Virus record (IMG/VR): IMGVR_UViG_3300045988_104258
From: a virus
Length of the DNA stretch: 60,408 nt
Direction: 5' to 3' (one strand)
The notes below the pieces were generated by a model. It searched no databases. It saw only the letters and a list, made by a program, of their open reading frames with translations, and was not told where the DNA came from. This document shows positions 3,289 through 53,672 of this stretch, piece after piece. Position 1 is the stretch's first letter. Each line of letters starts with the position of its first letter. A program made the position numbers and the translations under genes.

Positions 3289-3428
3289 TTTGCCTCATAA
3301 ACTGCGCTGTAAGTTCATCGGTCGTAACCGGAACCGTCACAGTTATCATTCATCGGGTTATCTCCCGAACGGATAGCCTTTCCTTTCCCATTGCCGTGCA
3401 GGGAATCCTGTCCATAATGCACGGATGT

Positions 3429-3519
3429 GAAATCGGGACGAACGCCATTCTCATTCGAAGCGTTGTTGTAGTTCGCATTACCGTTGTTGTTCACATTCGC
3501 GAAGTACGTAGACGAAACT
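3429..3519 (-). repeat. DGR template repeat (TR), 91 nt
   Basis: Aligns to 4158..4251. Coding-strand translation is VSSTYFANVNNNGNANYNNASNENGVRPDF, rich in AAC/AAT codons. Non-coding position between avd and RT. Confidence 0.85.
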
Positions 3520-3542
3520 TTTCAAAGGCTACCCGATTGTTG

Positions 3543-4088
3543 TCATTCGGTCTTTGCGGCTGTCTGAATGTGCGGTAGGAAACGCCCGTTATCAGATTGC
3601 CGCAATTTTTTAATGAGGTTGAAGTCTTTCTCAAGCTTCAATACAATGCGCGTGTATTTGTTTTTGTCAGCAGGCAGAACTTTTGCAATATAGTTCAGTT
3701 CGTCTTGGAGCACATTGCAACATTCCAGCGCTTTGTCCAGTTGCAGTCTGCGCTCCTCAAACTCACTCATATTGACAGGACTGATCGTGTTAGCTGCCCG
3801 AAGGTGTGCCGATATTCCACGAGAAAGCCTCAGAACCTCGTCCCGCTCTTTCTCAATAAACCACATACTAAAGTCCTGATTAGTCTCCCGAAGTTGAGCT
3901 GCAGCTCGTTCCCGCAGCGCATCGTCCTGAATATAATCTGTGACTTTACGGATGTGCTGTTCCAGCCGTTTTTCGCTGTACCCGAAAGTCAGCATCAACT
4001 CCGTTGTAATTTCAGAGCGAATATTCTGGGCCAGTGCCAAAGCATCCAATGAGGTCGCTTTTCTCCTACTTTTAGGAATATTAGACAC
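3543..4088 (-). CDS. avd: Avd-like DGR accessory protein (helical bundle, N-terminally extended)
   Basis: Lies between the target gene and TR as in BPP-1. Helical, basic; RLSRGISAHLRAANTI and a C-terminal helix pattern resemble the four-helix-bundle Avd family. GTG start with SD GAAGGA. Confidence 0.5.
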   Translation of the reverse strand: MSNIPKSRRKATSLDALALAQNIRSEITTELMLTFGYSEKRLEQHIRKVTDYIQDDALRERAAAQLRETNQDFSMWFIEKERDEVLRLSRGISAHLRAANTISPVNMSEFEERRLQLDKALECCNVLQDELNYIAKVLPADKNKYTRIVLKLEKDFNLIKKLRQSDNGRFLPHIQTAAKTE

Positions 4089-4118
4089 GCAAAAATCCTT
4101 CTTTCTACAAAAAATAAC

Positions 4119-4135
4119 GGCAGCACAAGGCCGCC
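4119..4135 (-). terminator. GC hairpin plus U-run 22 nt downstream of VR (terminator and/or DGR target-recognition hairpin)
   Basis: Minus strand GGCGGC-CUUGU-GCUGCC, then GUUAUUUUUUG. Confidence 0.45.
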
Positions 4136-4145
4136 TGATGGTTGA

Positions 4146-5324
4146 TCAGCCGACGACGAAATCGGGACGAACGCCAAGCCCATCCGAAGCGCCGCCGTAG
4201 TAGTTCGCACCACCGCCGTTGCCCACACCCGCGAAGCACGTAGACGAAACTACATCTCGCAGCCAGAACCACTGGCGGTTCGAGATCAGATGCGGTGCAA
4301 GCTGGAACAGAGGCAGCTGGCTCTTCTCCACAGTATAGTTCGTGGGAATCGTGCTGCCGTCGCAGCCAGGGGCAAAGATGTGACTGCCGTAGACCATGTT
4401 CTCGTTCATCAGCTCCACATCACTATCGAACCATGCGCCGCCAGAAGGCTTACCGTTGGTCACAGCATTGGTCAGGTAGACACGATGGGTCAGCACATGG
4501 TCTGCACCAAACACTGCAACCGCCTTCTCCTTGGCCTGTGCCAGACCTTCCAGACGCATCAGGCTGTTGACATAGCCGCCCTCAGTCGTATTGGTTGCGT
4601 TCATCTTGTGGGTATACAGCTGGGTATCCGGCACGATGACTGCATGATGGCTTCCGAAGCTGGTATCGCCGCACTGCAGGTAGTAGTCAAAACCGCCAAT
4701 GCGATAGCTCACGCCGCCATTGGACCAGTAGTCACCCACGTACAGGTCGTCAAAGGTACCCGCCTTGATGGCTGCCAGCTGTGCCTCCGTGGGAGCAGAA
4801 CCCAAATTCTTGCTCCGGAAGATGCCGTTGTGTGCTGCAGCGGCAGCAGTCAGAACAGCGCTCAGACTGGTGGCCGCTTTTTCAGTTGCCGCCTGAGCCT
4901 TCCGTGCTGCATCTGCGCTTGCCTGCGTTGCAGCAATCAGCTGCTCCCATGTAGTGCTGCCCGCATCGGGAAGGTCTGCCATTTCGGTGCCGCTGTTCTC
5001 TCCAACAGTGTAGGGCACATCTGCACTGGTGACGATTACGCCATCGCGAATACCCTGGAAGGTCACCTTGCCCTCGCCAGAAATTGCGGTCACGATAGCC
5101 GGGACGTTTGCCACATTGTTGGCGAACAGGGTTGCCGGAGGCGTGATTTCCTTGTTCGGGGTGTGCCAGTAGGCGCTGATGGTCAGGTTTGCCCACTCAT
5201 CACGGGGCGAGATACGCAGAGCATAAACGCTCTTGTTGCCCTCATAGCCCATGTTCAGGGTGCTGCTGCCATCTGCCAGCTGTGCCTGACCATTCTTAGA
5301 AAGGATCAGATTCAATTCAGTCAT
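4146..5324 (-). CDS. DGR target protein: tail-fibre/receptor-binding protein with a C-terminal CLec-type variable region
   Basis: C-terminus ...WFWLRDVVSSTCFAGVGNGGGANYYGGASDGLGVRPDFVVG carries the VR; the gene follows the Dit/Tal tail-tip genes. Confidence 0.8.
   Translation of the reverse strand: MTELNLILSKNGQAQLADGSSTLNMGYEGNKSVYALRISPRDEWANLTISAYWHTPNKEITPPATLFANNVANVPAIVTAISGEGKVTFQGIRDGVIVTSADVPYTVGENSGTEMADLPDAGSTTWEQLIAATQASADAARKAQAATEKAATSLSAVLTAAAAAHNGIFRSKNLGSAPTEAQLAAIKAGTFDDLYVGDYWSNGGVSYRIGGFDYYLQCGDTSFGSHHAVIVPDTQLYTHKMNATNTTEGGYVNSLMRLEGLAQAKEKAVAVFGADHVLTHRVYLTNAVTNGKPSGGAWFDSDVELMNENMVYGSHIFAPGCDGSTIPTNYTVEKSQLPLFQLAPHLISNRQWFWLRDVVSSTCFAGVGNGGGANYYGGASDGLGVRPDFVVG
4158..4251 (-). 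repeat. DGR variable repeat (VR), 94 nt
   Basis: 17 substitutions relative to TR, all at TR coding-strand adenines, plus one extra TAC codon. Confidence 0.85.
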
Positions 5325-21517: not shown

Positions 21518-22573
21518 TTAACTCAAATAATCGCTCATCTTGCGTTCCATGTAAGCGGAGCACTCCGAAACCGTCTTGTTGCCCAGCTTGGAAACGTAGC
21601 CGATTGTGTTTGCTCCAACTTCTTTTGCAATTCGCTCGGCATTGTAGCGCATATACAGCTTGTCCACGACCTTCGGATTGGTCTCTGTCACCGATTGCAG
21701 GCGGACAGAATCTGTATCAAACACGATCATCGGGCGCTTTGCATGATAGCTGGAATAATCCTTGTCGTTATAATCCAGCAACGCATTGTAGCCTTTCTTA
21801 CTCAGCTCCGCATAGAAACGGCTCTGTGCCGCCACTTCCTGTGCGTTATGGTTTGTCAGAGAAAGGTTTAGAGCTTTATAGATAGCCACTTTTTCAGAAG
21901 CCGTCAGTGTGGTGGGGTCTTTCTTCAACGCATTCTCAGCTTGCTTAAAAAGCACCTGCTGGGTGGGTCTGCGCATCTTCTCTTTGGAATCCGCTATGGA
22001 TGCTTCAAGATTCTGCTTGAACTCTTTCTCTTTCAGCAGTCTAGCCGTAATATCACTTGCGTTCTCATCAGAAGGCACCTTCAGCTTCTTGACTGTTTCC
22101 AGTTTCAGCTGATAGACCTTCATGCTGTTGGCTTTATCGCGTAAAGCGGTGGCCGTTACTAAGTCAGCTTCGCTGCCGGAAGCGTTCGCCTGCTTTTCTG
22201 CCTGTTTGGCATCGTAATTGGCTCGTGTCATCAGATTCTTTCCGAAGAGCCCCATGTACTTATCACTGTCAGCCTTCTTATAGGTGGCGTAGAACGCGAA
22301 ATTCTCGAAGTCCTTGGAAGTCTGAATCCGAGAGAAAGTTGTGCCCTTCTTCAGGTATCCGTCAACATACTGCCGACCCGTCACCTGTGTGCGAGCAGTA
22401 TTCACACAGTCTTTTACTCGCATCTCCATTGTGGATGCCATGCGCTCCATTCGGCTTGCGTTCTGACTTACACCATAACGCTTCCGTCCTGCCGGGGTAT
22501 ACGTGCCGTCAGCATACTGGTAACGCCTTACGCCCCACTTCTGGCCTTTGATGCCGTGGTGATACAATTCCAT
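21518..22573 (-). CDS. Head-module protein with an N-terminal GIKGQKWGVRRY motif
   Basis: 351 aa; N-terminus MELYHHGIKGQKWGVRRYQYADGTYTPAGRKRY is shared with 22584..23105 and 26021..26500. Confidence 0.5.
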   Translation of the reverse strand: MELYHHGIKGQKWGVRRYQYADGTYTPAGRKRYGVSQNASRMERMASTMEMRVKDCVNTARTQVTGRQYVDGYLKKGTTFSRIQTSKDFENFAFYATYKKADSDKYMGLFGKNLMTRANYDAKQAEKQANASGSEADLVTATALRDKANSMKVYQLKLETVKKLKVPSDENASDITARLLKEKEFKQNLEASIADSKEKMRRPTQQVLFKQAENALKKDPTTLTASEKVAIYKALNLSLTNHNAQEVAAQSRFYAELSKKGYNALLDYNDKDYSSYHAKRPMIVFDTDSVRLQSVTETNPKVVDKLYMRYNAERIAKEVGANTIGYVSKLGNKTVSECSAYMERKMSDYLS

Positions 22574-23204: not shown

Positions 23205-24257
23205 ATGTCTGATTCTCAACTGCGTCCCGCAGATTTCAATTGCGAGATTGCGCCTTGTGAAACCCATCCTGATTTCGATGACTCAACCCGTTTTAAAAAG
23301 GTCGAGTTTCCAGAGCAGGCAGGGCTTGCTGCCAATTCGTTATTGCAACTGATTCCTGCGCAAGCTGCGGCTGACGCTGTTTCCAGCACGTATGTTCTCC
23401 GTTTTCCAAAAGGCATCCATGGCACATTGTTGAACTTAAATCAGGGCGGTCAGTCCACAACTATGGTAGATGCCACCGGACATTTTGCAGGCACTGCTTC
23501 TCTGTATAAGGTCGATCCTGCAGCAGTTGCCGCTTTTCAGATGTTCAGTGTTGCTTCTTTTGCCACCGGACAGTATTTCCTCGCAGACATCAGTTCCAAG
23601 TTAACAGAAGTCAATCGAAAGCTGGATGACCTTCTGGTATTTCTTCAGGCTTCCAAACGCACGGAATTGCTGTCTGAACTTACATTTGTTAAGTATGCAC
23701 TTGCAAACTTCTCGACCATCATGCTCAGTGAGCCGCAGCGCATGGCTACCATCGGCAACCTGCAACGTGCAAAAATCAAGGCTGTGGCTGACATGGAGTT
23801 CTACACGGAGCAGTTGGAAGATTCTGTTGGTGCAAAAACCAACGAAAATCAGGCCAGAACCGTATTGCAAAACAAACAGGGCATTGACCTTGCTTCCCAG
23901 CTGTATGCCATCAGTACCATTATGGAAGCTTACTATGCGCAAAATTGGAACAAGTCTTACCTTGCGAATATCAAAGCCGATGCGAAACCTTTGTTTGCTC
24001 TCAGTCAGAACCGCATGATTGGTGCGCTGAAAACCTTCTCTGATAAAATAAACAAGGAAATCGAAAGCAAAAAGAAAGGTCTGCTCAAAGGCGATGTGTC
24101 TGCAAGCGAGCACAAAATTCTGGAACTATCTGATGTATTGAATGCGCAGCCAGAGTCTCCGCTTCTTGTCTTGGTCAAGGATGCACTGGACAAGCCTTCT
24201 GCTCCTACGGAACTGTACCTTCGTCCGAACGGCGAAGTCTACCAAAAGGTCGTTTGA
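23205..24257 (+). CDS. Hypothetical 350-aa protein; the only plus-strand gene (moron)
   Basis: ATG at 23205 with SD GGAGGAGG. Largely helical sequence with no family recognised by eye. Its stop codon lies one nucleotide from the convergent TerL stop codon. Confidence 0.6.
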   Translation: MSDSQLRPADFNCEIAPCETHPDFDDSTRFKKVEFPEQAGLAANSLLQLIPAQAAADAVSSTYVLRFPKGIHGTLLNLNQGGQSTTMVDATGHFAGTASLYKVDPAAVAAFQMFSVASFATGQYFLADISSKLTEVNRKLDDLLVFLQASKRTELLSELTFVKYALANFSTIMLSEPQRMATIGNLQRAKIKAVADMEFYTEQLEDSVGAKTNENQARTVLQNKQGIDLASQLYAISTIMEAYYAQNWNKSYLANIKADAKPLFALSQNRMIGALKTFSDKINKEIESKKKGLLKGDVSASEHKILELSDVLNAQPESPLLVLVKDALDKPSAPTELYLRPNGEVYQKVV

Positions 24258-24258
24258 T

Positions 24259-26004
24259 TTACTCAAACGCTTCTCGATTCATCTTCCATGCAATGTAGGC
24301 ATCCATCATGGCAGCAACTGCATCAATCTTCTGGTCAGAACGACGCTTCAGCAGCTTGCGGTTACCGTTCGTGTCTTCCAGAACAATGCAGTTGCCCATG
24401 GCAAATTGCATAAGAGCTTCATCAAAGAGTAGTTTCCGCTGTTCGCTCAGCTTCTTCAGTTCACCCAACGGTACACTCTCGGTCTTTGCGCCCTGAATGA
24501 CCTTCTCTACACCAAACGGCGCATTCTCTGTACACCAGCGTTCTACAAAGTCCTTGGCATTATAAGGGTCATATCCAAAGCACCGGACATCATAGTCGTT
24601 CTGCTGAATGAAGTTATCGAGGTCATCATAGACCTGCATCATATCAAGCACCGTGCCATCAAACACCTGTAGTGTTCCTTCCTGCATGAACTGGTCGTAC
24701 TTCTGGCGCATGGCCTGTGGGAGCTTCGACAGTGTATAAGAGGTAATGTAATCTCTGGTTTTCACGCCAAAGAAGCCGTTCGCCATTGGGAACAGAAATG
24801 TAAACGCACAGAAGTCATCACCCTGTGACAAGTCTGCGCCGAGAGCACAAGGCATCTGCCAGTAATCTCGGTGGCGATGTGGCAGGGTTTCTTCATACGG
24901 AAAGAAGTAGGTATACCCCTCCATAGGAATGTTAAAGCGCTTGGCCAGAATGTCGTTTCTGGAGCCAGGCGCTTTTTCTGCGCGTTCTACATCCAGCTGA
25001 TACGTTTCGTAGCTGACAGTCTGTCCCAGATTTGGGTTTGCCTTCAGCCACATATCGGGGTTTGTAACTTCATCGATGGAATCCAACTTGTAGTACCAGA
25101 TGGACACATGGGGGTTGATGTACTCCCCTTTCAGGATGTCCATTAACTCCATTTTGATTGTATCACCACAACCATTACGGACGGTGCCTTCTGAACTGGT
25201 AGCTACAATCAGGTAGTCCTCGTTCTTCGATGCACCCTGTTCAAGTGCACTGATGGGGTCTTCCCGAATGTCGCAGCTCAACCATTCGTCAACGGTAGCC
25301 ACACGATCCCTTCGCCCCTGCAGCTTATCAATGGTCATCGGGCGTACTTCCAGCAGACTGTTTGTCAGGAAGTTCTCGATGCCCTTCTTGGTCGATGCCA
25401 GTTTCACTCGGTCTGCTTTTGCGCCAGTCGTGTTCTGTAAACTGCCCTCCGTCATGAACTTCAAAAGAGGTCCCTTCGACCGAGCCAGTGCTGTACGGAT
25501 CGGTGAAAGGACCTCTTCTGCTTGTTTCATGGTGGGCGCGGTAGTGCATTGCTGGGTAGTTGATACATCCACCGTCAAAAAGTAGCTCTGAATGAATGCG
25601 TCGTACATGGTCTTGGCGGCACCGCGAGGAATGATAAGATACTGCTTCGTGATAAGCCGTTTCTTGATACGCTTTCGCTCATAGTGACCGCCATGTCCTC
25701 CGGGATTGGGCACATAGATACTGCGGTCCACAAAGTAGTACCAGCCAAATATCTCTTCTGCCCAAAGCTTGAAGGAATCCAGCAGTTTCAGGTCTCCGCC
25801 GTCAGTAAGGGTCAGTTCATTCTCGCAGAACTTGACAAAACCTTCCACTGCTTTGTCATCATAGTAGATGCCTGGGTTTGCAATCAGGTCATCAATCCGG
25901 TTCATCTCCATGGAGACTTCTCGGCATACCGGAATTTCACCCCGAATCACGGCCTCTCGAAACCGGCCATAATAAATCGGCGTGGCCGTGTTTGAAAGTG
26001 CCAT
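24259..26004 (-). CDS. terL: Terminase large subunit
   Basis: 581 aa; Terminase_1-like ATPase (LIIPRGAAKT) and a C-terminal nuclease region. Confidence 0.8.
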   Translation of the reverse strand: MALSNTATPIYYGRFREAVIRGEIPVCREVSMEMNRIDDLIANPGIYYDDKAVEGFVKFCENELTLTDGGDLKLLDSFKLWAEEIFGWYYFVDRSIYVPNPGGHGGHYERKRIKKRLITKQYLIIPRGAAKTMYDAFIQSYFLTVDVSTTQQCTTAPTMKQAEEVLSPIRTALARSKGPLLKFMTEGSLQNTTGAKADRVKLASTKKGIENFLTNSLLEVRPMTIDKLQGRRDRVATVDEWLSCDIREDPISALEQGASKNEDYLIVATSSEGTVRNGCGDTIKMELMDILKGEYINPHVSIWYYKLDSIDEVTNPDMWLKANPNLGQTVSYETYQLDVERAEKAPGSRNDILAKRFNIPMEGYTYFFPYEETLPHRHRDYWQMPCALGADLSQGDDFCAFTFLFPMANGFFGVKTRDYITSYTLSKLPQAMRQKYDQFMQEGTLQVFDGTVLDMMQVYDDLDNFIQQNDYDVRCFGYDPYNAKDFVERWCTENAPFGVEKVIQGAKTESVPLGELKKLSEQRKLLFDEALMQFAMGNCIVLEDTNGNRKLLKRRSDQKIDAVAAMMDAYIAWKMNREAFE

Positions 26005-26020: not shown

Positions 26021-26500
26021 TTATCTTTGAACCAGATGTTTATCAAGATAACGTTTATACTCTGCATCGTATTCCTTTTTCGGATTACGAAGAAGGAGAA
26101 AGCTATCCTTAGTGTCAAGATTCAAGTCAAGAGTGGCATTAAACCGCTCTGCCTCTTTTTTAACTTTTTCCGCTGCTCTTTTTCCTTCTGATACAACCTG
26201 TTTGTCAATTTGGGAAAACCCACGTTTTCCAATTCGGCTCATCAGAGCATCCACTTTGGTACGTGCCTGCTTTTCATAGTATTTATTGTTATAAGAGTCC
26301 AGCGCAGAAATTCCCGTTGAATTAACTGTTTTAGACTGTTCGGCCAACTTTTGAGTATTTTTAATATTGTTATAGCTTTTTCGATATTTGCGCACTCCCT
26401 CTGGTGTCAGACTGCCATCAGCATTCCGGTAGCGCCGAACGCCCCATTTCATACCTTTGACGCCCCAGTGCCAAATTTCACAACTATTCATAATCATCAC
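26021..26500 (-). CDS. Small protein with an N-terminal GVKGMKWGVRRY motif
   Basis: 159 aa; EIWHWGVKGMKWGVRRYRNADGSLTPEGVRKY; 44 nt identical to 23044..23087. Confidence 0.5.
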   Translation of the reverse strand: MMIMNSCEIWHWGVKGMKWGVRRYRNADGSLTPEGVRKYRKSYNNIKNTQKLAEQSKTVNSTGISALDSYNNKYYEKQARTKVDALMSRIGKRGFSQIDKQVVSEGKRAAEKVKKEAERFNATLDLNLDTKDSFLLLRNPKKEYDAEYKRYLDKHLVQR

Positions 26501-26835
26501 CCTTTATCATGCTCCACATTCAGCCGCCACTCCATTTCGGATGCGGTATTCTGCAGAGCCTCTTTGGTCACGCTGCTTTGTGGTACATCGAAGCCCAGCA
26601 GCCGCACCTTGACTGCCACATAGGCTTTCACGGCTTCCACCTTCACCGGGTCAGCAATGAACTGGTTCCAAGTAGCGCTTTTGTCGGAGATAAAAAAGCC
26701 CTCTTTCGGTCCTACCCCCATCTGGGAAAGGATCATTAGCACAGTGTTGATGTACATGATGATATCCGGGTCGAATGCCTCATAGTCTGCAGGCAGACCC
26801 AACAGCTTTTTTACAGAAGTGAGAATGCTGTCCAT
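26497..26835 (-). CDS. gp6-like head-tail connector protein
   Basis: MDSILTSVKKLLGLPADYEAFDPDIIMYINTVL... is a typical connector N-terminus. Confidence 0.5.
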   Translation of the reverse strand: MDSILTSVKKLLGLPADYEAFDPDIIMYINTVLMILSQMGVGPKEGFFISDKSATWNQFIADPVKVEAVKAYVAVKVRLLGFDVPQSSVTKEALQNTASEMEWRLNVEHDKG

Positions 26836-26852
26836 AGTTGCTCCTTATAAAA

Positions 26853-26886
26853 TGAAAAAGCGCACCAGCCGCTAAGCCAGTGCGCT
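26853..26886 (-). terminator. Intrinsic terminator after the NACHT-like gene
   Basis: Stem AGCGCAC/GTGCGCT (26859-26865 / 26880-26886), then UUUUUCAUUUU on the minus strand. Confidence 0.55.
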
Positions 26887-26893
26887 AATTGAA

Positions 26894-29071
26894 TCAGTTC
26901 TTATTGCTTATTACCCACTTGTCAAAATCATGGAACGCCGAATCCATTAAAACAGTATCCATGCGTGACAATGCATTAAAAGAAATCCCCTTTTCCTGCA
27001 TCTTTGTTTCATCAATCTTATAGAGATGGGCTGAATTATAAAGGATTCCACAAGATTTCAAGTAATCCAACACCTGCTTTTTTACAGAGCTGTTGCTAAC
27101 TACAACACGATCTATCCTATCAGCAGTTTTAGCCAAAGTATCCTTTCTGTGTGTTCTGAATTCAACAAGGATACAATGCATTGCATGAATAAACTTTACT
27201 ATATCAAAATTCGAGCTGTCCTCAAAGTCGTATTTATAAGGAATTAAAGAATAATAATTTGTCAAATTTTCTGCATCGACTTTTAAGTCATCAGCCTTTG
27301 CAACATCAATTATTACTCCATCGCCTGCAAAGCCTTCATGAGCAACCAACAAGCAAGTTTCAGGTTTATAAGATTCTATGCTGATGTTCTGTGTTTCCCA
27401 AATCAGCTTTCTACAAATCACTGATGAATTATAAACCCTACAGTCAACGCCCTTCTTTCCAATATGGACATCAACACTAGGAGCATCAATGGAAACACTA
27501 ATCAACTGATCAAAAGCTATCAGCTCTCCGGTCATGCTGATTTCAGCAATATAGTCTTCTCTCTTTATAGCCTTCTTCTTCCCGGGAATCATCCCAAAAA
27601 CAGCCAAACACTTGCTGTCCTCCGTTTCGGATGCCGGAATCTCAGAGCATTCCAAATACGGACGTTCATACGCCGTTGCTTTAGCCTTAAAGGAATCATA
27701 CACATACGAAATGTGTTTAGGCTGAATTGTTTTCTCAGAGATTCTCATATAGCAATCAAAGAAAATCTGAGACGGGAAATAAGACTGACTCTGTAAAACA
27801 TCGAAATACAAATCAGCGGACGCTTCATGTTCTTTGTTTAAGATAATTTTCGTCAGGGTATAATCTCTAAATGCAGGACCCGTAAAATCAATCTTTTTCG
27901 ATAGTCCATTATTCTCGACACTATTACGTATAAATGGATGCTGCGGCAGAAACGCTTCCAGCACAGCCTGATATTCATTCACCAACTGTGGAGGCAAAAA
28001 GTCAAGCTCGTAGTTGCTATACTTACAATCCTGAAAAAGAATAAAGTATATAATCCTTACAAGTTGCTCTTCCGGTGAATAAACTTTTTCCCAATCAGAA
28101 AATTCAGGATGCGATGCCGCACATCTTTCCTTAAATGCAGGAATCACTTTTTCCGCCTGTTCACGATTCAACAGATCGTCCATTATCTTCATGATAATTG
28201 CTACACAGTCCTTCTGATTTGCAAGCTCGCTAATCAGTTTCTGACGGTTAGGAGATTCCTTTATATGTGCAGATATTGCCTCCAACACCGGTGCATAGCC
28301 CAAGAAAGATGCTCTTTCTTCAGGTGTGATATTGGTATTGACTACATCATAATACTTCTCTGCGCATGTAATGTCAGGCTTCGTTGGAGTATTCTTTCCA
28401 GCAACACTTCTCACAATAAAAGACTTTGCTGCAGTTTCATCGAAAAAACCGATTTCATAGTGAGCAACGGGAATTTTGTTTTCTGCGCAGAATGAAGCGA
28501 TATATTGGGCTGTTTCTGTTCTCGCTAGCAGGAACACTGTAGGCATCGTATGGTTTGATAAGCTTTCACTAATGTCGGCAATAAAGCTGTTCAACATTTT
28601 CCGCCCCGAAATGATCTCGGCTTCATCAAAAGCATCAATAACCAATAAAACATTACCCATGTTCATATCAGCTATAAACTCGGAATACTTTGGCGCTCCG
28701 ACAGCATTAAGAATTGAACCAGCAAAGCTGTTCGTACCAACTTTTACTTTTGCCAGATTCCAGTAGAGGGCATTAAACCGATGTGCAATATATTTAGCTA
28801 AAGAGCTCTTGCCCGCCGCTCCTGGTGCCGACAGCAAAACAAATTTCGGCTTCAGAGTAGACAGTTTTTTATCGGTTTTTACGTCACTGAAAGATGGCGG
28901 AATATAGAACGGCTCATTATCTATATAGCTAATGTAGTCCGCTACCGAATCGTTCAGCAAGTATCTCTTGCATTCGCTATATGAGCCAAGAATTCCTTCC
29001 AGAACCATTTGACTTCCTCCTATGATAGAGTCGATGTATTTTATTACATTATAATCTCTTATCGGTTTCAT
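26894..29071 (-). CDS. NACHT/STAND-like P-loop NTPase (candidate prophage-encoded defence protein)
   Basis: Walker A LLSAPGAAGKSS, Walker B LLVIDAFDEAE, long helical C-terminal region. Start taken at the ATG at 29071 with SD GGGGGAG (the ORF-track start at 29215 overlaps the HNH gene). AT-rich relative to its neighbours. Confidence 0.6.
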   Translation of the reverse strand: MKPIRDYNVIKYIDSIIGGSQMVLEGILGSYSECKRYLLNDSVADYISYIDNEPFYIPPSFSDVKTDKKLSTLKPKFVLLSAPGAAGKSSLAKYIAHRFNALYWNLAKVKVGTNSFAGSILNAVGAPKYSEFIADMNMGNVLLVIDAFDEAEIISGRKMLNSFIADISESLSNHTMPTVFLLARTETAQYIASFCAENKIPVAHYEIGFFDETAAKSFIVRSVAGKNTPTKPDITCAEKYYDVVNTNITPEERASFLGYAPVLEAISAHIKESPNRQKLISELANQKDCVAIIMKIMDDLLNREQAEKVIPAFKERCAASHPEFSDWEKVYSPEEQLVRIIYFILFQDCKYSNYELDFLPPQLVNEYQAVLEAFLPQHPFIRNSVENNGLSKKIDFTGPAFRDYTLTKIILNKEHEASADLYFDVLQSQSYFPSQIFFDCYMRISEKTIQPKHISYVYDSFKAKATAYERPYLECSEIPASETEDSKCLAVFGMIPGKKKAIKREDYIAEISMTGELIAFDQLISVSIDAPSVDVHIGKKGVDCRVYNSSVICRKLIWETQNISIESYKPETCLLVAHEGFAGDGVIIDVAKADDLKVDAENLTNYYSLIPYKYDFEDSSNFDIVKFIHAMHCILVEFRTHRKDTLAKTADRIDRVVVSNSSVKKQVLDYLKSCGILYNSAHLYKIDETKMQEKGISFNALSRMDTVLMDSAFHDFDKWVISNKN

Positions 29072-29132
29072 GTCAAATTCTCCCCCAAAGGTATCTGACT
29101 CAAAGTATACATCTTTTATAATTCTTAAATTG

Positions 29133-29591
29133 TCAAAAGCAAGTTTTTCTCCATGGGCAGGTGTCGCCCGGTCTTCGTTCTGTGAATACTGGCTCCAGAA
29201 TGCTGTCATCCCCATAATGGATTGCCTTATGTGTTCGATCGGATACGCAAATCACATTATCAGGGTCGAGTAAACACTCTCGGTGCTCCAGTACGTCTTC
29301 TTTTGTAATAGGGTTTATATGGTGAATGATGATACGTGGTCGGATAAGTTTTCCGTCTCGGACAACCCAGTCCGTAATCTCATGGTCAGGAACGCCAAGA
29401 TCGCACCCCATGTCTCGAACAATAATTTTGTCACGAAACATCCGCCACTCTCTGGACTGGTAAAAGTCTTGATTCAGGTATCGGTCAAAGCCGAATGTGT
29501 CATGCCCAACAGCACCATGCAGTTGTAAATAATGGAACCGGTCTTCAAAGGTCGAATACTGGCAAAGCTCAGAATATGTTCTCTGATTCAT
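29133..29591 (-). CDS. HNH endonuclease (packaging-associated)
   Basis: IIHHINPITKED...SDRTHKAIH is an HNH motif; adjacent to the small terminase-like gene. Confidence 0.7.
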   Translation of the reverse strand: MNQRTYSELCQYSTFEDRFHYLQLHGAVGHDTFGFDRYLNQDFYQSREWRMFRDKIIVRDMGCDLGVPDHEITDWVVRDGKLIRPRIIIHHINPITKEDVLEHRECLLDPDNVICVSDRTHKAIHYGDDSILEPVFTERRPGDTCPWRKTCF

Positions 29592-29922
29592 CGTTGTCTT
29601 CCACCCCGCCGTATTCCCGCATTGCCTTGATTGCCTCCTTGTAAAGAAGGGCGTTATCTTTGGCTGCTTGAATAGCATCTGCTTTTGCATGAAGGAGTGT
29701 ATTCTCTGCTTCCAACTTTTTCTTTTCCAGTTCTGACTTGACTGTGGCCAGTTTCAGAAAATGAGTCGTTTCAGCTGAAGATGCCGTTCCTTCTCGCAAT
29801 CGCTTCTCCACCAAATCCATTGCCAGGGAAATCATCTGGTTTTCTCGTACTTCTGGGGACAATGTTGGCCGCATGGGAGCCACGTCTTCAGAAGCAGCTT
29901 TCTTTGTCCTCATTTTTGTCAT
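29569..29922 (-). CDS. Putative terminase small subunit
   Basis: Basic N-terminus, helical ...GTASSAETTHFLKL...; lies upstream of HNH; assignment is positional. Confidence 0.35.
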   Translation of the reverse strand: MTKMRTKKAASEDVAPMRPTLSPEVRENQMISLAMDLVEKRLREGTASSAETTHFLKLATVKSELEKKKLEAENTLLHAKADAIQAAKDNALLYKEAIKAMREYGGVEDNDESENIF

Positions 29923-30534: not shown

Positions 30535-33300
30535 TTACTTGTTAAGATTGTCATAAATCGTTGACTCAGGAACGCCACAAGCCTTTGCAATCTCTGCATA
30601 GCTATAGCCGTTTGCCAACATCGCTTGTGCTTTGCCTAACTTAGCAGAAGACAACGTTGTACTTGCTTTTGGCATTGCTCGTTTGATGATTTCATCCGAC
30701 TTTGACGAGTTCAGAATCTTCATCAGCTTGGAATCAGAGATTGCACCAGCTTGAACTGCTTCCCATTCACGATCTGTGAACGTAATCTTTGTCTTGCTGC
30801 CGCTTGCACCAACAGAATCGCGTGCGCGCTGCATCTCAACAGCGGCAATCTTCTTGATTTCTTTCTTGTCCTTCTTATAGTCCAAACCTTGAGCCTGTAC
30901 TTTAGCCTTAATATTCTCGTTTGCAATAATGGTAGCACGCCTTTCTTTCGGCTTGTTACCAATAACCGCATTGAGCTTAGCGTTAATAGACTCAACCTCG
31001 GCTCTATATTTTTCGGCAGCATCAGGGCTTTTCTGGATGCCCTTCATATTTACCGCCTCTTTCCGCGCCTGATTAGCCAAAGCCTTCAGTTCATTTGAAA
31101 AATCGGCATAGTAATTTTCTTGAATGGTGCCGGAGGATAGGTCTCGTGCGTTAGGGTACATGGAAATAAGACTTACTTCCGTCATAGCTTGTACTCTCTT
31201 GCCCGTTTTTGGGTCAATAAAAGTACGCCCAGACTCCTTATATTTTTTTTCGCCCGTCTCTTTATCGATTCGAGCACTTCCTTTGCGCTCAGGCACTCGA
31301 ACGGTCTGTTTTCTTCTGGATAAGAGCGTGGATGCACCGCCATATTTTTCAGTGCCGTCCTCTTGCACTCTGATTTGCCATTTTTGCTTCAGCTCCTGGA
31401 TACCATTTTCACGTTCAGAACGTTTATAGTCCAGCTTATGCTTTTCCGCATCAATAACGACCATGGAATGCTTGACGGCACGAGCAATATCGCCTTCAGG
31501 TGCGCCGCGAAGAGTCATGTCAGTAATAAGATTGGAAATAATCCCCATCTCTTTCTGCTTTTCCTCTTTCTTCATGAGGCGCACGCCATTGGGATTTCCT
31601 TCAGGCACAGCATATGCAATCTTGGGGTCGAAGTCTTTCAAATCCTTCAGAGCGGGGGTGGATTTAATATCAACTTTGCTCGACTTTGGAATCGCTACAA
31701 CCGTATCGCCATCAAAATCAGCACCAGACAAACGTTCTGCAACCTTTGCGTTGATGCCAATTGCATCCTGCACATTGCCGAGATTTCTACGCCCGGACAA
31801 ATTCTTGTTATTGACCGTTACAATAGGAATCTCAAAGGTTCCTGCATGAGGAAAACGAACCAATGCAAGCTGAGTGCCATCAGGATATGTAGGACAATAG
31901 CATTCTCTCTCTCCGATTTTGGACAGTGGTAAAATAACCTTTGTCGCCTGACCCGGGAAAGAAGATGCTTTCAGGGTCATCGAGTTGCCCTCGCAAGTAT
32001 CTGCGAAATCAAGCAACAGCTTTTTCCGAATCGTCGGATTGTCATACTGCATAATTTCGTCATATTCTGCCTTGCGGTCAGCAATAGTAAGATCTAATTG
32101 CTGTTTCAGAAGTTTGACCGGCTGTTTGGACAGAAACTGCGAAGAAAGGTTCTTTGCCATGGTGTCCCAATCGCCTTCTTCTTTCAGCTTATTGATGGGC
32201 GACAGATGTTCTTTTCCGTCCTCACCAATATAGGTGCTCTGACCATTTGCCTTGATAGATGCGCCGAAAGGATTATCGGGGTCATCTTTGATAGGCTTTA
32301 AGACCTTCATTTTCGGAGTGCCAGATTTCTTGTTGGTGTTAAACACCACATCATAACCTTTAGGAATATCGTCAGAATATACAGCCATGCCTTTCAGATA
32401 ATGACTGTCATCCACCATGATACGAACCTGCGCATAATGTGATTTTCCGAGGTTCAGGTCAGCAACACCTCTCCGAATTTCGATAACGCCATCCTTGTCC
32501 AGACCGCCTTCATCACCATAACGAATATAAACACGGTCAGAACTCATGCTACTGGGGCGCTGAAGCTTCTTGAACGTTTCACCGCCATCTTCAGAATGAT
32601 ACTCACCAAGAGACTGGATTTCATTCTGATGCTGATATGCATATTTCTGGTCATATTCCGGCTTTGCCAGAACAGTGATGTTGGTTTGCTGGTTAATATT
32701 TGTTGGCTGACGAATGCCAACGCCATAACGCTGATATCCGTGCTCTGCCTCTAAAACAAATATAGCATCGTCCAAATCACCTTCTGAAACGCCCAGAACC
32801 AGATTTGTACCTTCGGAAACATCGATCATGCCCTTCTTATCGACTTCCTTGCGCAGGGTCTCGGCAATTTCTTTGGTTCTGGTATATTTATCAGGTTTGT
32901 CGTTCTTCAGCATCGAACGAACCGTGGATTCAGATAAACCCATCTCACGACCGATTTCTGTGGGGCCGAGCCCATCCTGAGATAAGGCACGTGCACGGTC
33001 ATATTTGAGCTGCTGGCGTTCGTGAATGGCTCTGCGTTGTGCCATACGGAACTCGGTAGCACCCATCTTATATTCTTCGGGGAGAGAATCGTTAATGGTC
33101 TGGAGAATATCCTTCTCCTTCATGCCGCTCTTCTTCAGTTCCTCAACACGTGACAGAAAATCGCCTGAACGCTGATACGGATTCTCACCGGACCCCCACG
33201 GATATCTGCCCGAGTGGCGTTTGGTACCATAATGCTCCAGGATACTGTCTTCCGGCGCGATACCGAAATATCCTCGAATATCTCTTTCTACCGGATTCAT
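30535..33300 (-). CDS. YonO-like single-polypeptide two-barrel RNA polymerase with N- and C-terminal HTH domains
   Basis: LVRFPHAGTFEIPIV...IGINAKVAERLSGADFDGDTVVAIP parallels beta-prime NRAPTLHRLGIQAF...NADFDGD. SHYLKGMAVY may be a beta-like GNKG element. HTH sequences: GLGPTEIGREMGLSESTVRSML and YSYAEIAKACGVPESTIYDNL. Confidence 0.6.
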   Translation of the reverse strand: MNPVERDIRGYFGIAPEDSILEHYGTKRHSGRYPWGSGENPYQRSGDFLSRVEELKKSGMKEKDILQTINDSLPEEYKMGATEFRMAQRRAIHERQQLKYDRARALSQDGLGPTEIGREMGLSESTVRSMLKNDKPDKYTRTKEIAETLRKEVDKKGMIDVSEGTNLVLGVSEGDLDDAIFVLEAEHGYQRYGVGIRQPTNINQQTNITVLAKPEYDQKYAYQHQNEIQSLGEYHSEDGGETFKKLQRPSSMSSDRVYIRYGDEGGLDKDGVIEIRRGVADLNLGKSHYAQVRIMVDDSHYLKGMAVYSDDIPKGYDVVFNTNKKSGTPKMKVLKPIKDDPDNPFGASIKANGQSTYIGEDGKEHLSPINKLKEEGDWDTMAKNLSSQFLSKQPVKLLKQQLDLTIADRKAEYDEIMQYDNPTIRKKLLLDFADTCEGNSMTLKASSFPGQATKVILPLSKIGERECYCPTYPDGTQLALVRFPHAGTFEIPIVTVNNKNLSGRRNLGNVQDAIGINAKVAERLSGADFDGDTVVAIPKSSKVDIKSTPALKDLKDFDPKIAYAVPEGNPNGVRLMKKEEKQKEMGIISNLITDMTLRGAPEGDIARAVKHSMVVIDAEKHKLDYKRSERENGIQELKQKWQIRVQEDGTEKYGGASTLLSRRKQTVRVPERKGSARIDKETGEKKYKESGRTFIDPKTGKRVQAMTEVSLISMYPNARDLSSGTIQENYYADFSNELKALANQARKEAVNMKGIQKSPDAAEKYRAEVESINAKLNAVIGNKPKERRATIIANENIKAKVQAQGLDYKKDKKEIKKIAAVEMQRARDSVGASGSKTKITFTDREWEAVQAGAISDSKLMKILNSSKSDEIIKRAMPKASTTLSSAKLGKAQAMLANGYSYAEIAKACGVPESTIYDNLNK

Positions 33301-39689: not shown

Positions 39690-39840
39690 TCTTCTCCTCA
39701 AACTTCACAGGTTTGACAGTACCCTCCCTCGCACACTCCGTCAGGCACTCGTTGCAGGGCTCGTCCGTCTCCAGTACCTTGAAGTTCTTGCACTTCGGGC
39801 AGTAGGTCGCATAGTCCACTTCGCGCATCCAGTCATTCAT
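39679..39840 (-). CDS. Zinc-ribbon small protein (53 aa, below the ORF-track cutoff)
   Basis: ATGA overlap with the upstream stop; YCPKCKNF...PCNECL. Confidence 0.35.
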   Translation of the reverse strand: MNDWMREVDYATYCPKCKNFKVLETDEPCNECLTECAREGTVKPVKFEEKTRK

Positions 39841-40528
39841 CTGATTTTACCTCTCGAATAATTGCGGTTTTCCCACAACGAGGACAAATTCCAACGTATC
39901 CGTCCATAATAGTAAGGCATTTTGCTCTTTCATTACGCCATTTCGTAGCAGGGATTCCGAAGTGAACTCCACATTCATTACAAACTACAGGAACGACTGC
40001 TTCACGGACAATTCCGTTATCTTCTTCAGGATCAGGCGGAAGAGTCCACGGATTATCGCCACCGCAAAGTGGACATTTAAATATAACTTCATGTTCGCCC
40101 ATCCGTTTTCCAGTAGCTCTAGCCCAGTGCTTCCCGCAATGCGCGCACTTACCATTGTAAGCCACCCAGTCATCACGATCCCCCTTAGTTACGGTGGACT
40201 TAATATTGAACCTATCATCCAACTCCGGGTGCGTCTCCCGCTGGTTCAGCGCCCAGAGCAGATTCCAGCAGGCAGCTCGCAGGTGGTCCTCATCATCCAT
40301 ACCGACCATGTACTTTGCCAGATGCCGAGAAGCACTGTCCAGCAGCGAATGCAGCGGGATGCCTTTGTCCACATTGTGCTCGCCGTATTTCAGCGCACCT
40401 TCCTCGCAGTGCTTGCTGACCTCCATAATGCCGTACCAAGGAAGAAGGTCCATTCTACCCTTCCCTGCGTGCATATCGCGCTTTGCACCGGTTTCAAATT
40501 CGGTGCGGTCTCCAGAGTCTTTAATCAT
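39833..40528 (-). CDS. MazZ/DUF5664-like dNTP pyrophosphohydrolase domain fused to Cys4 zinc ribbons
   Basis: DSGDRTEFETGAKRD...GKGRMDLLPW...ALKYGEHN...W N-terminal pattern; C-terminal CAHCGK, CPLCGG, CNECG, CPRCGK. Confidence 0.5.
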   Translation of the reverse strand: MIKDSGDRTEFETGAKRDMHAGKGRMDLLPWYGIMEVSKHCEEGALKYGEHNVDKGIPLHSLLDSASRHLAKYMVGMDDEDHLRAACWNLLWALNQRETHPELDDRFNIKSTVTKGDRDDWVAYNGKCAHCGKHWARATGKRMGEHEVIFKCPLCGGDNPWTLPPDPEEDNGIVREAVVPVVCNECGVHFGIPATKWRNERAKCLTIMDGYVGICPRCGKTAIIREVKSDE

Positions 40529-40701
40529 TTTTGCTCCTCCCAAGGATATTTTTCTGCTCTTGTTCCATCTGCTAAAATTTTGCAGTAGCACTTTTGGTCA
40601 GGTAATACACACTCACCAGCGTTCTCGATGTTGATATCGCAGTCTTTATATTCGCCGTAAATACTACGCTTGCAATCTGCGCAATAGTTAATCTCTCCCA
40701 T
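40525..40701 (-). CDS. Cys-rich small protein (58 aa, below the ORF-track cutoff)
   Basis: MGEINYCADCKRS...; its stop overlaps the next ATG. Confidence 0.3.
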   Translation of the reverse strand: MGEINYCADCKRSIYGEYKDCDINIENAGECVLPDQKCYCKILADGTRAEKYPWEEQK

Positions 40702-50504: not shown

Positions 50505-51473
50505 TTAGATTTTGTCGATGATAATGCCATCACAGTTGAAGTGCAGAATGACAGAACGCTCCTCGCCACGGAGGAAGCTCTTCAGTGCCTCATCGCTCGA
50601 TTCAAAGCTCGTGAGGCCGAAATCCACATGGTTGTGCAGCGAAGTGTCATTCGGATTGTATACCCAGCCAACGACCTGGCCAGTAGGAGTGCGCAGAGAT
50701 TGACCACCGTGCGTGCCAATCATGGTGAGCACCTCATTCAGGAACAGATGCCCCTGAGAACGCAGTTTCTTGTTCGCTGCAGACTCCATGAGGAGCAGAT
50801 AGTTCCGATTCAGGTCGGCATCCCGCTCCCACGTGTCCACAGTTTCATCGAAAATCAGAGTGCACGGATCATCTGCCTGCTCAGCGATATCCTTGTACTC
50901 TTTGATGACCTCCTCTACACCGTTCTCATCGACCTTCTTGGTTTCAACCTCCACGGCCTTAACGTTCTGCTCCAATTCATGCTGTACCCGCTCGCCAAAG
51001 CGGTCGGCGACGCGGTTCTTATAGCTGTTGAAAGACTGCTCCAGCGCGATGTAGGCAGCCGTCAGCGTTGCATTCCGCTTCGTCATGATATGATGACTGC
51101 CGAACATGCAACCGAGAGATGCTGCGCCCAGGCCAATCGCAGGTGCATACACCTTTGCAAGCTTCATACCGGTCTTAATGTAAGTCGTGGTGATGTCCTT
51201 CGTCAGGTCTTCCTTAGTGTAAGTCTCACCTTCCGACAGCTGAATTTCCCCGGAGTCTACCTTATCTTTAGTCTCGTGGATTTTCTCCACATTTGCCTTG
51301 TGCTCGGCCAGAATATACTGTGCCTTCAGGGTCGCCTTGCAGGCCAGAACGGTTGCAGTTACGCCACCGATTGCAGCACCAACCACCATGATGGTCGGGC
51401 TTGCTTTCTTCAGCTTGAATGCAGTCTTAGACAACATCTGCGTTGCCTTAGTCATGATTTCTTCCTTTTTCAT
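50505..51473 (-). CDS. Membrane-anchored paralogue family member (1 of 3)
   Basis: The N-terminal TM ...PTIMVVGAAIGGVTATVLACKAT.KA and ...APAIGLGAASLGCMFGS......RNATLTAAYIALEQSF..YKNRV are shared with 52869..53642 and 54149..54934. Confidence 0.5.
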   Translation of the reverse strand: MKKEEIMTKATQMLSKTAFKLKKASPTIMVVGAAIGGVTATVLACKATLKAQYILAEHKANVEKIHETKDKVDSGEIQLSEGETYTKEDLTKDITTTYIKTGMKLAKVYAPAIGLGAASLGCMFGSHHIMTKRNATLTAAYIALEQSFNSYKNRVADRFGERVQHELEQNVKAVEVETKKVDENGVEEVIKEYKDIAEQADDPCTLIFDETVDTWERDADLNRNYLLLMESAANKKLRSQGHLFLNEVLTMIGTHGGQSLRTPTGQVVGWVYNPNDTSLHNHVDFGLTSFESSDEALKSFLRGEERSVILHFNCDGIIIDKI

Positions 51474-51492
51474 AAAATATCAGTCCTTTCAA

Positions 51493-52098
51493 TTAGTTCA
51501 GAGGAACAGGTTTCGGAAATACGATAGTGTAACCGCCCGGAACACCCTTGATAGATGCAGGCCCAAGGTCATACCAGCCATACTTGCAGTCCTGATAATC
51601 ACGAGCATCACGGGTAATTCCCACAACATCGTAAAAATCAGCAATCGTGACCTGCCCGTATTCGTGGAGCGCATGGCCCATCTCGTTCAAAACATCATTC
51701 GCATCGGCATAGCTATCGAAGGTGATGTTCTGCCAGTCCAGCCGGTTCGGGCGATAGTTGTTCTGCGGAGGACGGCTCTGGTTTGCATTTGCGTAGTAGC
51801 TGCTATAGCTGTTACGCTGCTGAGAATATCCGCCCGTATTGGTGCGGGAACGGTCGACACCGAACAGTGCGATATTGACCGCAGAGCACACCATGTTCTT
51901 GATGCCGGGCAGAATATAATCCGTCCACAGCTTTTCGCGAATCGTCTGCAGGTCTTCTGCGAGAAAGTTATGCGCCAGCTTCTGGATCTCGCTCTCCTGT
52001 TTGATAGTCACCTTACCGGTCGTGACCTTCTTCAGCTGTTTCTTAGGCGGTTCGCCAGTGGAGTTGATGCTGCTGGAAGGCATTTCGATTTTAGCCAT
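51493..52098 (-). CDS. Hypothetical protein
   Basis: Start MAKIEMP overlaps the upstream stop. Confidence 0.4.
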   Translation of the reverse strand: MAKIEMPSSSINSTGEPPKKQLKKVTTGKVTIKQESEIQKLAHNFLAEDLQTIREKLWTDYILPGIKNMVCSAVNIALFGVDRSRTNTGGYSQQRNSYSSYYANANQSRPPQNNYRPNRLDWQNITFDSYADANDVLNEMGHALHEYGQVTIADFYDVVGITRDARDYQDCKYGWYDLGPASIKGVPGGYTIVFPKPVPLN

Positions 52099-52414
52099 TG
52101 GCCATACCCTCCTCTGCGTACTGGAGAATAGTTTCACCGATTTCCTTTGCGGTCTCAGGCAACCAGGCAGTGCCAAAGGTCTTGCCGGTCGTCTTGTCTG
52201 TAATGCTGATGATAACCTTTTTCACACCCTTGATAGTGGTTCCGGTGTCCACACGGAGCCGGTAATCCTTCAGAATATCCTGATAGTGCTTCTTAAACAT
52301 CACCTTGATGTAAGCCTTATCCCCGGCAACGCCAACAGCCACACCCGCAGCAAAGATGCCACCGATTACTGCAGCCTTTTTCCAGTTGAACTTTTTGTCG
52401 TTTTTCTTTTCCAT
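52091..52414 (-). CDS. Small membrane-anchored protein
   Basis: 107 aa with an N-terminal TM segment. Confidence 0.4.
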   Translation of the reverse strand: MEKKNDKKFNWKKAAVIGGIFAAGVAVGVAGDKAYIKVMFKKHYQDILKDYRLRVDTGTTIKGVKKVIISITDKTTGKTFGTAWLPETAKEIGETILQYAEEGMANG

Positions 52415-52440
52415 GGTAATTCTCCTTTATAAAAATAAAA

Positions 52441-52466
52441 GGAGCCGCAGATTTCCCCACGGCTCC
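52441..52466 (-). terminator. Conserved hairpin, copy T2
   Basis: Plus strand GGAGCCGCAGATTTCCCCACGGCTCC; minus-strand TTTTATTTTTATA follows. Confidence 0.55.
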
Positions 52467-52485
52467 CTTGCGGCTGTCCAACAGA

Positions 52486-52797: not shown

Positions 52798-52840
52798 AGT
52801 GATTCTCCTTTAATTAAAATATAAATGTTGGAGTATACCT

Positions 52841-52866: not shown

Positions 52867-52868
52867 AA

Positions 52869-53642: not shown

Positions 53643-53672
53643 TTTTCATACCTCCGTAAAATATAAAAGAAA

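Follow-up and report, generated by a model that had tools for sequence, protein, structure and literature searches.

What is a gene for an NLR-like ATPase doing in the packaging module of a phage? The question is raised by IMG/VR virus record IMGVR_UViG_3300045988_104258 (the window), a stretch of 60,408 nucleotides from a gut phage of Clostridia that encodes a YonO-like RNA polymerase (RNAP) and a tyrosine integrase; the integrase marks the phage as temperate. On the minus strand, among phage genes of the same orientation, one long open reading frame (ORF; 26894..29215) lies between the gene for an HNH endonuclease and those for the connector and the large terminase subunit (TerL), a position confirmed by the matches of its neighbours (phrog_4321, PF24829 and TerL). 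A first-pass annotation, made from the letters alone, had taken the ORF for a NACHT/STAND-like ATPase in an acquired, AT-rich island. The evidence assembled below supports its assignment, from sequence motifs and a predicted fold, to the NACHT clade of STAND proteins, as an NLR-like NTPase encoded by a single gene. Our preferred explanation of the locus, to which we assign a probability of about 0.6, is that the cassette is a moron placed by recombination, whose NACHT-like sensor would serve abortive infection or exclusion directed against rival phages.

Identity and domain organisation of the ATPase

Both nucleotide-binding motifs noted earlier, Walker A (SAPGAAGKSS) and Walker B (LLVIDAFDEAE), are present in the translated ORF. 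They conform to the STAND patterns GxxxxGK[ST] for Walker A and hhhhD with acidic residues after it for Walker B. In a conservation set of 83 diverse homologs (21–71% identical; residue numbers count from Met1, the methionine at 29071), G87 and K88 of Walker A and D146, D149 and E150 of Walker B are invariant, and A147 is kept in 93%. The core of Walker B, DAFDE, matches D[GAS]hDE, and family member P0249 reads DGLDE; this motif sets NACHT apart from other STAND NTPases (Kibby et al., bioRxiv 10.1101/2022.07.19.500537, Fig. S1 legend). The sensor-1 residue R184, an arginine that STAND NTPases have behind strand β4, is 100% invariant, and hhalign pairs LARTET with TTSR/TTTRPG of bNACHT proteins. 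After the nucleotide-binding domain (NBD), the four-helix region of HD1 carries a GxP motif (G258 in 98%, P261 in 95%), and the predicted winged-helix domain (WHD) contains H378-P-F, conserved at 95–98% (H378 itself at 98%, within Q-H-P-F).

Profile and fold comparisons point in the same direction. A bNACHT profile was built from the first ~400 aa of six experimentally tested proteins, bNACHT01/02/04/11/12/22 (Table S2 of the Kibby et al. preprint). Our diverse family alignment (A4) matched this six-sequence alignment in hhalign with a probability of 91.6% (E 8e-7); the 157 aligned columns begin at Walker A, include sensor 1 and reach strand β5. Against the bNACHT11 sequence alone the probability was 74.7%. 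The controls reached 17% for DnaX (32 columns, P-loop only) and 0.6% for an ORC-CDC6-like ATPase. An AlphaFold2 (AF2) model computed on 36 homologs had a pLDDT of 86 and a pTM of 0.83. Its best fold matches in the PDB, found with Foldseek, were NLRP3 (8swk), NRC4 (9cc8) and NAIP5 (7rav), with E values of 1.6e-5 to 2e-4; they align over 430–630 columns, as against 220–280 columns for classical AAA+ proteins. The DAFDE, R184 and GxP motifs, the NLR fold matches and the gap between the bNACHT profile and its controls thus bear out the NACHT/STAND-like assignment, and the profile check for a non-STAND family leaves it standing.

The ATPase belongs to a large family. Clustering at 50% identity gives 1188 representatives, of which 522 score E ≤ 1e-30; almost all are ~700 aa long and match end to end. 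Among the candidates scored in a word-indexed search, 610 proteins had E ≤ 0.001. Sampled members are all named 'hypothetical protein' in the databases, and no curated model of Pfam, NCBIfam, PADLOC or PHROG matched the ATPase above threshold. The sub-threshold matches all point to STAND (NPHP3_N, NACHT, nSTAND3 and the NCBIfam antiphage model EruA), and the same weak matches recur in distant family members. A tblastn search of 50,697 deposited phage genomes returned no match to the ATPase, profile searches of PDB sequences, run with a close family alignment (A1) and with the diverse one (A4), yielded P-loop-level or spurious matches alone (E > 0.4), and Foldseek against the BFVD viral structures found generic AAA+ proteins alone. 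Measured against Pfam, NCBIfam, PADLOC and the sampled names, the family is new and unannotated; prophage-encoded STAND sensors as such are already established.

In the AF2 model (domain boundaries in Table 1), HD1 is followed by a helix and β-hairpin unit at residues 333–410. The long helical C-terminal region expected by the first-pass annotation is not seen: the model instead has a β-rich domain and, behind it, a domain that we call winged-helix-like, a weak assignment. Modelled on their own, the C-terminal 267 aa reached a pLDDT of 88. When this isolated segment was searched with Foldseek, the β-rich domain had no PDB fold match at E < 0.03, and the last ~100 residues weakly matched the DNA-binding domains of Sso10a, MarR/OhrR and CRP (E 0.09–0.7). 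Median identity among the 83 homologs is 34% for the NBD, 25% for the winged helix, 17% for the N-terminus and 14% for the β domain. This pattern suits a fast-evolving sensor followed by a conserved terminal module, and we propose the variable β-rich domain as the putative sensor.

The first-pass annotation described a short N-terminal domain and recognised no effector domain in the protein; a library scan, Foldseek and the AF2 model agree with this description. One family member of 1059 aa, P0168, carries a 354-aa N-terminal HipA/CtkA-like kinase domain before its NACHT-like module, as judged from a below-threshold match to Pfam HipA_C (E 5.7e-6) and from DRHxxN and APxFD motifs aligned to CtkA. 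STAND effectors normally sit N-terminally, as this kinase domain does. P0168 is a single case; its kinase domain may be a genuine effector fusion or may have been joined on in assembly.

The inserted cassette, its signals and its spread

The island previously placed at 26853-29132 is an insertion, a few bases off those coordinates. In blastn comparisons with the sister phages L012–L014, whose flanks are 95–97% identical at the nucleotide level, homology stops at 29145 and restarts at 26847, which defines the cassette listed in Table 1. The interval that replaces it in L012 measures 265 bp and holds an 87-aa gene, the counterpart of which is annotated DUF6275 in related loci. In all three sisters the HNH and connector genes are 277 bp apart, with this DUF6275-type gene alone between them, and in other relatives the gap is 15–60 bp. 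The ATPase was absent from all 80 IMG/VR loci fetched through TerL (78–100% identity), even where TerL was 99–100% and the RNAP 99% identical, and from each of the 64 TerL-related loci that show both flanking genes.

The composition of the cassette sets it apart from the rest of the phage. Its G+C content is 39.1%, versus 47.4% for the window (standard deviation 2.9% for 2297-bp windows), and a sliding calculation over the 60 kb ranks it lowest of 1163 windows of 2297 bp, which confirms the AT-rich island. G+C at third codon positions (GC3) is 39% in the cassette and 58–70% in the TerL, connector, portal and capsid genes. The same bias accompanies the gene elsewhere: its G+C content is lower than that of its flanks in 35 of 36 viral loci and 6–23 points lower in 5/5 metagenomic loci. 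The largest gap, 23 points, separates 38–39% from 58–62% in L156–L160 and L169.

The cassette also appears to carry its own expression signals, and these bear on the start codon. Read from Met1, the ORF gives the 725 aa of the first-pass annotation. A predicted promoter with all consensus bases of TTGACA-N17-TATAAT overlaps this Met1; it is the single perfect site in the window, where 0.02 would be expected by chance. The motif, in the form TTGACA (TTGACT in L094)-17-TA[TC]AAT, is kept upstream of the homologs in L001, L007, L091, L092 and L094, five loci of unrelated context. In L091, a Mu-like phage, the Met1 codon is replaced by ATA followed by a stop, and the promoter motif is still present. 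Many cluster representatives start exactly at query position 22, and 131 of 146 longer gene calls have a methionine at the position equivalent to Met22, which is preceded by the Shine–Dalgarno sequence AGGAGG. For these reasons the start is most likely Met22, giving a protein of 704 aa, not 725. The 21 upstream 'codons' would then be conserved promoter, and the conserved Tyr7-Asn8 in reality the TATAAT box. We rejected a start at Met1 with GGGGGAG as its Shine–Dalgarno sequence on the grounds of the representative starts, the L091 sequence and the frequency of Met22. The gene does have a ribosome-binding site of its own, as first described, at another site and before another start codon than in that description.

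The terminator reported at 26853..26886 was found again as a predicted hairpin with a T-run. A near-identical hairpin follows the L001 homolog, and a different 12-bp hairpin follows that of L091. The term moron was reportedly defined for lambdoid phages by Juhala, Hendrix and colleagues. Since it has its own predicted promoter and terminator, a deviant composition and no counterpart in close relatives, the cassette fits this classic definition. Its horizontal acquisition, suspected at first from base counts, is borne out by its absence from sisters that are 95–97% identical, by its own predicted signals and low G+C and by the shuffling of its alleles. Other members of the same phage lineage hold the ATPase in the same HNH–connector slot, and the gene does not follow its backbones: L147 is 99% identical to the window in TerL and 95% in the RNAP and just 71% in the ATPase, and L136 is 83% identical in TerL and 95% in the ATPase. 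This incongruence indicates that ATPase alleles are exchanged among backbones by recombination.

Homologs occur in 36 IMG/VR contigs, some of which belong to phages of other, unrelated types. The Mu-like phage L091 has its homolog between Mor and gp27/terminase, L094 at a prophage end directly after the lysin, and L092 alone among housekeeping genes. Full-length copies also stand alone in bacterial chromosomes, far from phage genes. The spread is patchy and covers at least 10 phyla, among them Bacillota, Bacteroidota, Chloroflexota, Acidobacteriota, Planctomycetota, Myxococcota, Desulfobacterota and Actinomycetota. Beside distant homologs we found no conserved partner gene; the adjacent genes encode such different products as prolyl-tRNA synthetase, a GNAT protein, a pilin-like protein and an ORC-CDC6-like ATPase. 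A two-gene system was rejected on account of this heterogeneity. In the actinomycete Lentzea (L130, 8400..9914), the end of an ORC-CDC6-like ATPase gene (PF24389, E 1e-15) overlaps the start of the distant homolog that follows it; the pair might represent a version of the system with two ATPases.

The slot itself takes several forms. It is empty (15–60 bp), filled with a DUF6275-type gene (~260–330 bp) or occupied by other cargo, and it is empty or otherwise occupied in at least 60 relatives. The sister phage L026 has an established abortive-infection system there, AbiLi (456 aa) with an AbiLii/RloB-like protein (294 aa) (2666..4887; PADLOC E 1e-84 and 5e-16), L016 and L041 have opposite-strand zinc-ribbon membrane proteins, and L018 has a 217-aa protein. 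Judged from these gene contents, the HNH–connector slot is a cargo hotspot of temperate gut phages that encode a YonO-like RNAP and form an abundant lineage.

Proposed role and alternative explanations

What the analysis itself shows is the insertion and its hotspot context, the signals in the sequence, the NACHT motifs with the predicted fold, and the mobility of the gene. A defence role is suggested by the AbiL genes in the same slot, the mobile stand-alone homologs, the patchy spread, the β domain as the fastest-evolving part and the precedent of bNACHT clade 14 described below; the N-terminal kinase domain of P0168 counts towards it as well. Considering hotspot, mobility, fold and precedent together, an anti-phage role is plausible. 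In a lysogen, the host RNAP would transcribe the ATPase gene constitutively from the consensus promoter and stop at the cassette terminator. The ATPase at rest would be an inactive monomer, presumably ADP-bound. Binding of a protein from a superinfecting phage to the variable β-rich domain would lead to nucleotide exchange and oligomerisation of the NACHT modules. The clustered N-terminal extensions, or the C-terminal winged helices, could then signal abortive infection or exclusion and thereby shield the lysogen population.

Several points weigh against this interpretation. The library scores lie well under their cut-offs: 13.7 bits for Pfam NACHT (cut-off 26.7), 18.1 for NPHP3_N (24.8), 13.2 for nSTAND3 (27.2) and 13.9 for EruA (1000). 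PADLOC, proposed at the outset as a check, gave 0 families at E ≤ 1. At 1.6e-5 the Foldseek E value is modest, and the list of matches is mixed with classical AAA+ proteins. The canonical position of the ADP-contacting WHD histidine (FxHxxFxEY; the equivalent of NLRC4 H443) is apparently Gly, judged by eye: the stretch F396-T-G-P-A-F-R-D-Y was matched in this way to F-L-H-K of bNACHT proteins, and the near-invariant H378 is found 20 residues before it. The ATPase has no recognisable effector domain, and the N-terminal motif of 89 members is not MDPIT/MEPIS. Enrichment of defence genes is weak around 28 homologs in chromosomes and metagenome-assembled genomes, where 150 neighbour proteins included 3 AbiL/AriA-like ATPases, 1 RloB, 4 DNA methylases and 3 integrases, the rest being housekeeping proteins. 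The promoter and terminator are predictions from sequence. Finally, every functional step of the model, from lysogenic expression through trigger and oligomerisation to output and the defence phenotype, is drawn by analogy with bNACHT and Avs proteins.

The weak resemblance of the last ~100 residues to the winged helices of Sso10a, MarR/OhrR and CRP raises the alternative of a regulatory STAND switch of the MalT/AfsR/GutR kind, in which the nucleotide-binding oligomerisation domain (NOD) would sense a small molecule or a protein and the winged helix would bind DNA to regulate prophage maintenance or host genes. The winged helix is better conserved than the β domain, STAND clades that regulate transcription and have no part in defence lie scattered among defence clades (PMC13581612), and Kibby et al. 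(bioRxiv 10.1101/2022.07.19.500537) count the winged helix-turn-helix among the adaptor effectors that bacterial NACHT proteins carry at the C-terminus. However, the matches to winged helices fall short of significance (E ≥ 0.09), no conserved target gene or operon adjoins the gene, whose neighbours differ by context, and near-identical phages dispense with it. AT-richness, patchy spread and residence in a hotspot suit conflict genes better, and we regard a regulator as unlikely.

A conflict gene could also help the phage in other ways, as a counter-defence factor or a decoy titrating some component of host immunity, or as an addiction-like selfish cassette spread by recombination with no protection for the host. 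Its many phage carriers (36 IMG/VR loci), its place just upstream of essential late genes and its high mobility, with alleles shuffled among backbones, would fit such a function. The full-length chromosomal copies far from phage genes do not, and the predicted promoter, of a consensus host type, suggests expression outside the lytic programme; moreover, all the characterised prokaryotic NACHT/Avs proteins cited act in defence. We therefore consider this explanation improbable. The position between HNH and connector/TerL, together with a weak match to the PHROG clamp-loader family (E 0.058), might instead mark a core packaging, replication or assembly ATPase of the HNH–terminase module. Yet a core component would hardly be missing from 64/64 TerL-related loci with both flanks, including those with TerL 99–100% identical, or be found at other positions in unrelated phages and in chromosomes. 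These presence and absence data, and a DnaX alignment confined to the P-loop at 17%, led us to reject a packaging or replication ATPase, which has very little probability left.

Returning to the sensor interpretation, a more specific version can be offered tentatively. The ATPase may be an effector-less NLR-like immune receptor of a kind not described before, with a new β-rich sensor fold that has no PDB match. Its output would involve no enzyme and no MDPIT/MEPIS motif, and would consist in clustering of the N-terminal M-x-L-[DE]-[SG]-I-L motif or engagement of DNA by the winged helix; the gene would spread with its own promoter among gut Clostridia phages. If the defence role is true, a large family (1188 clusters, many phyla) that current models miss joins the bacterial NLR-like repertoire. 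It would also join bNACHT clade 14 as a second example of NACHT signalling with no recognisable effector; its sensor fold would be a different one, followed by a C-terminal winged helix. Other unannotated genes in the HNH–connector slot and in the TerL–portal slot described below are candidates for a similar function. The cassette is compact: its 2.3 kb include the native predicted promoter and terminator and can be cloned whole.

Window features and comparison with known systems

Table 1. Coordinates of the cassette, its parts and other phage genes of the window
Feature	Position	Strand	Basis or remark
Whole inserted cassette, 2297 bp (promoter, 5′ untranslated region, ATPase gene, terminator)	26848..29144	minus	blastn breakpoints
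Predicted sigma-A/sigma-70 consensus promoter, TTGACA-N17-TATAAT	29048..29076	minus	12/12 match; predicted transcription start ~29041
Shine–Dalgarno sequence AGGAGG	29016..29021	minus	7 nt before Met22 ATG; invariant in aligned L001, L002, L004, L007, L008
Coding sequence of the NACHT-like STAND ATPase, 704 aa (most likely start)	26894..29008	minus	Met22 ATG 29008..29006; stop 26894..26896
N-terminal extension, 54 aa (residues 22-75), motif M-x-[LIV]-[DE]-[SG]-I-[LVI]	28847..29008	minus	AF2; 89 N-termini
Nucleotide-binding domain (76-228), with Walker A SAPGAAGKS (28805..28831), Walker B (28616..28648) and R184	28388..28846	minus	conservation, hhalign
HD1 (G258-Y-A-P261), predicted winged-helix subdomain (H378-P-F, F401) and HD2 (229-465)	27677..28387	minus	AF2, conservation, Foldseek
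β-rich domain, ~11 strands (466-605), most variable part	27257..27676	minus	AF2 pLDDT mostly 80-97
C-terminal domain, tentatively winged-helix-like (606-725), moderately conserved F638-R639	26897..27256	minus	AF2, weak Foldseek
Predicted intrinsic terminator, 12-bp stem, 4-nt loop, T-run	26849..26886	minus	hairpin at 26886..26859
YonO-like single-subunit RNA polymerase	30535..33300	minus	phrog_4291, 1168 bits
HNH endonuclease	29133..29690	minus	phrog_4321, E 5e-61
Connector	26497..26835	minus	PF24829, E 2.5e-34
DUF7211 protein, 159 aa	26021..26500	minus	between connector and TerL
TerL	24259..26004	minus	downstream of connector and DUF7211
Tyrosine integrase	59087..60112

In order of transcription, the region runs from the YonO-like RNAP through two small conserved proteins, HNH, the ATPase, the connector and DUF7211 to TerL, with the portal further on. 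The RNAP has 921 aa, the motif GADFDGDT and helix-turn-helix domains at both ends; its gene adjoins the upstream side of the late/packaging genes, and it is 45–99% identical in related loci that cover the region. YonO transcribes the late genes of SPbeta as a single operon; it lacks the majority of the domains conserved in multisubunit polymerases, and one domain of that kind, the β flap, is tied by the authors of the YonO work to hairpin-dependent termination (PMC5467207). By analogy, the phage polymerase may read through the hairpin of the cassette terminator.

The DUF7211 gene is a second AT-rich indel (G+C 40%, GC3 37%), absent between connector and TerL in L012–L014, L138, L151 and L152, of which L138, L151 and L152 carry an ATPase identical to that of the window. 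Its 25-aa N-terminal motif recurs in a 351-aa protein (21518..22573) and in the slot cargo of L032. Between TerL and the DUF7211/portal genes lies a plus-strand gene for a 348-aa protein (23211..24257) with no match in Pfam, PHROG or PADLOC. Relatives hold differing opposite-strand genes in this TerL–portal slot, including zinc-ribbon proteins, and the slot looks like a second cargo hotspot.

Elsewhere, the window contains a diversity-generating retroelement (2062..5324). Its reverse transcriptase is encoded on the minus strand (2062..3288; RVT_1, E 4e-13), and its template repeat (~3429..3519) and variable repeat (~4158..4251) are 82% identical, the mismatches falling nearly all at plus-strand T (A on the coding strand) in the printed copies. 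A 392-aa gene (ORF 4146..5324) next to tail genes contains the variable repeat at its 3′ end. A protein encoded at 39833..40591 has the N-terminal domain of dATP/dGTP diphosphohydrolases (PF18909, E 5e-18), which hints at nucleotide-pool manipulation or base modification, and three paralogous DUF6353 genes stand in tandem at 50505..54934.

The closest precedent for the ATPase is bNACHT clade 14 (bNACHT01/02/11/12). Proteins of this clade have no recognisable effector; once they have formed heptamers, their ~45-aa N-terminal extension triggers plasmolysis, and a fast-evolving C-terminal domain serves to sense several phage proteins (bioRxiv 10.1101/2024.12.17.629029). Shared with the window ATPase are the single gene of similar size (609–639 aa there, 704 aa here), the short effector-less N-terminal extension, D[GAS]hDE, the fast-evolving C-terminal region without repeats and, as best structural neighbours, eukaryotic NLRs, besides the hhalign probability of 91.6% over the NBD. 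The two differ in that the window ATPase has no PADLOC match at E ≤ 1 and a Pfam NACHT score far under threshold, and in that its N-terminus (Table 1) resembles the MDPIT/MEPIS of clade 14 only loosely. The ~260-aa C-terminus is predicted as a β-rich domain plus a winged helix, and the C-terminal domain of clade 14 is known as SNaCT; the carriers are Clostridia and their phages here and Enterobacteria there. No chain described as bNACHT11 (PDB 9ORF) is among the 50 Foldseek matches listed.

A 2026 survey distinguished 589 STAND clades, 198 of them associated with defence (Lee et al., Nature 2026, PMC13581612). With Avs/AVAST and the defence clades of that survey (PMC13581612) the ATPase shares the logic of effector, NOD and sensor and the frequent carriage by prophages. 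Avs sensors recognise conserved phage proteins, which for the present ATPase is a proposal. In contrast to Avs proteins, the window ATPase matches no Avs model in PADLOC (E ≤ 1), has a β-rich sensor of ~260 aa rather than a TPR-like repeat of at least 400 aa, and contains no recognisable nuclease, protease or other enzymatic effector. The NOD modules of the eukaryotic proteins NLRP3, NAIP5 and NRC4 are the best fold matches, aligned over NBD–HD1–WHD and beyond, and have the same Walker B signature; identity is 10–14% and TM-scores are 0.25–0.32, and LRR, PYD, CARD and CC domains are lacking here. MalT/AfsR regulators have the same order of NOD, sensor and C-terminal DNA-binding-type domain, and differ from the ATPase with its NACHT-type Walker B, lack of a LuxR/SARP domain and of a conserved operon, and mobile AT-rich gene.

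As a genomic element, the cassette resembles the classic lambdoid morons, which likewise have their own promoter and terminator and a deviant composition and lie between genes that neighbour each other in relatives. The slot resembles the P2/P4 defence hotspots (Rousset et al., PMC9122126) in offering alternative defence cargo, here AbiL in L026. What distinguishes it from both is its place, between HNH endonuclease and head–tail connector in a lineage of YonO-RNAP phages of gut Clostridia.

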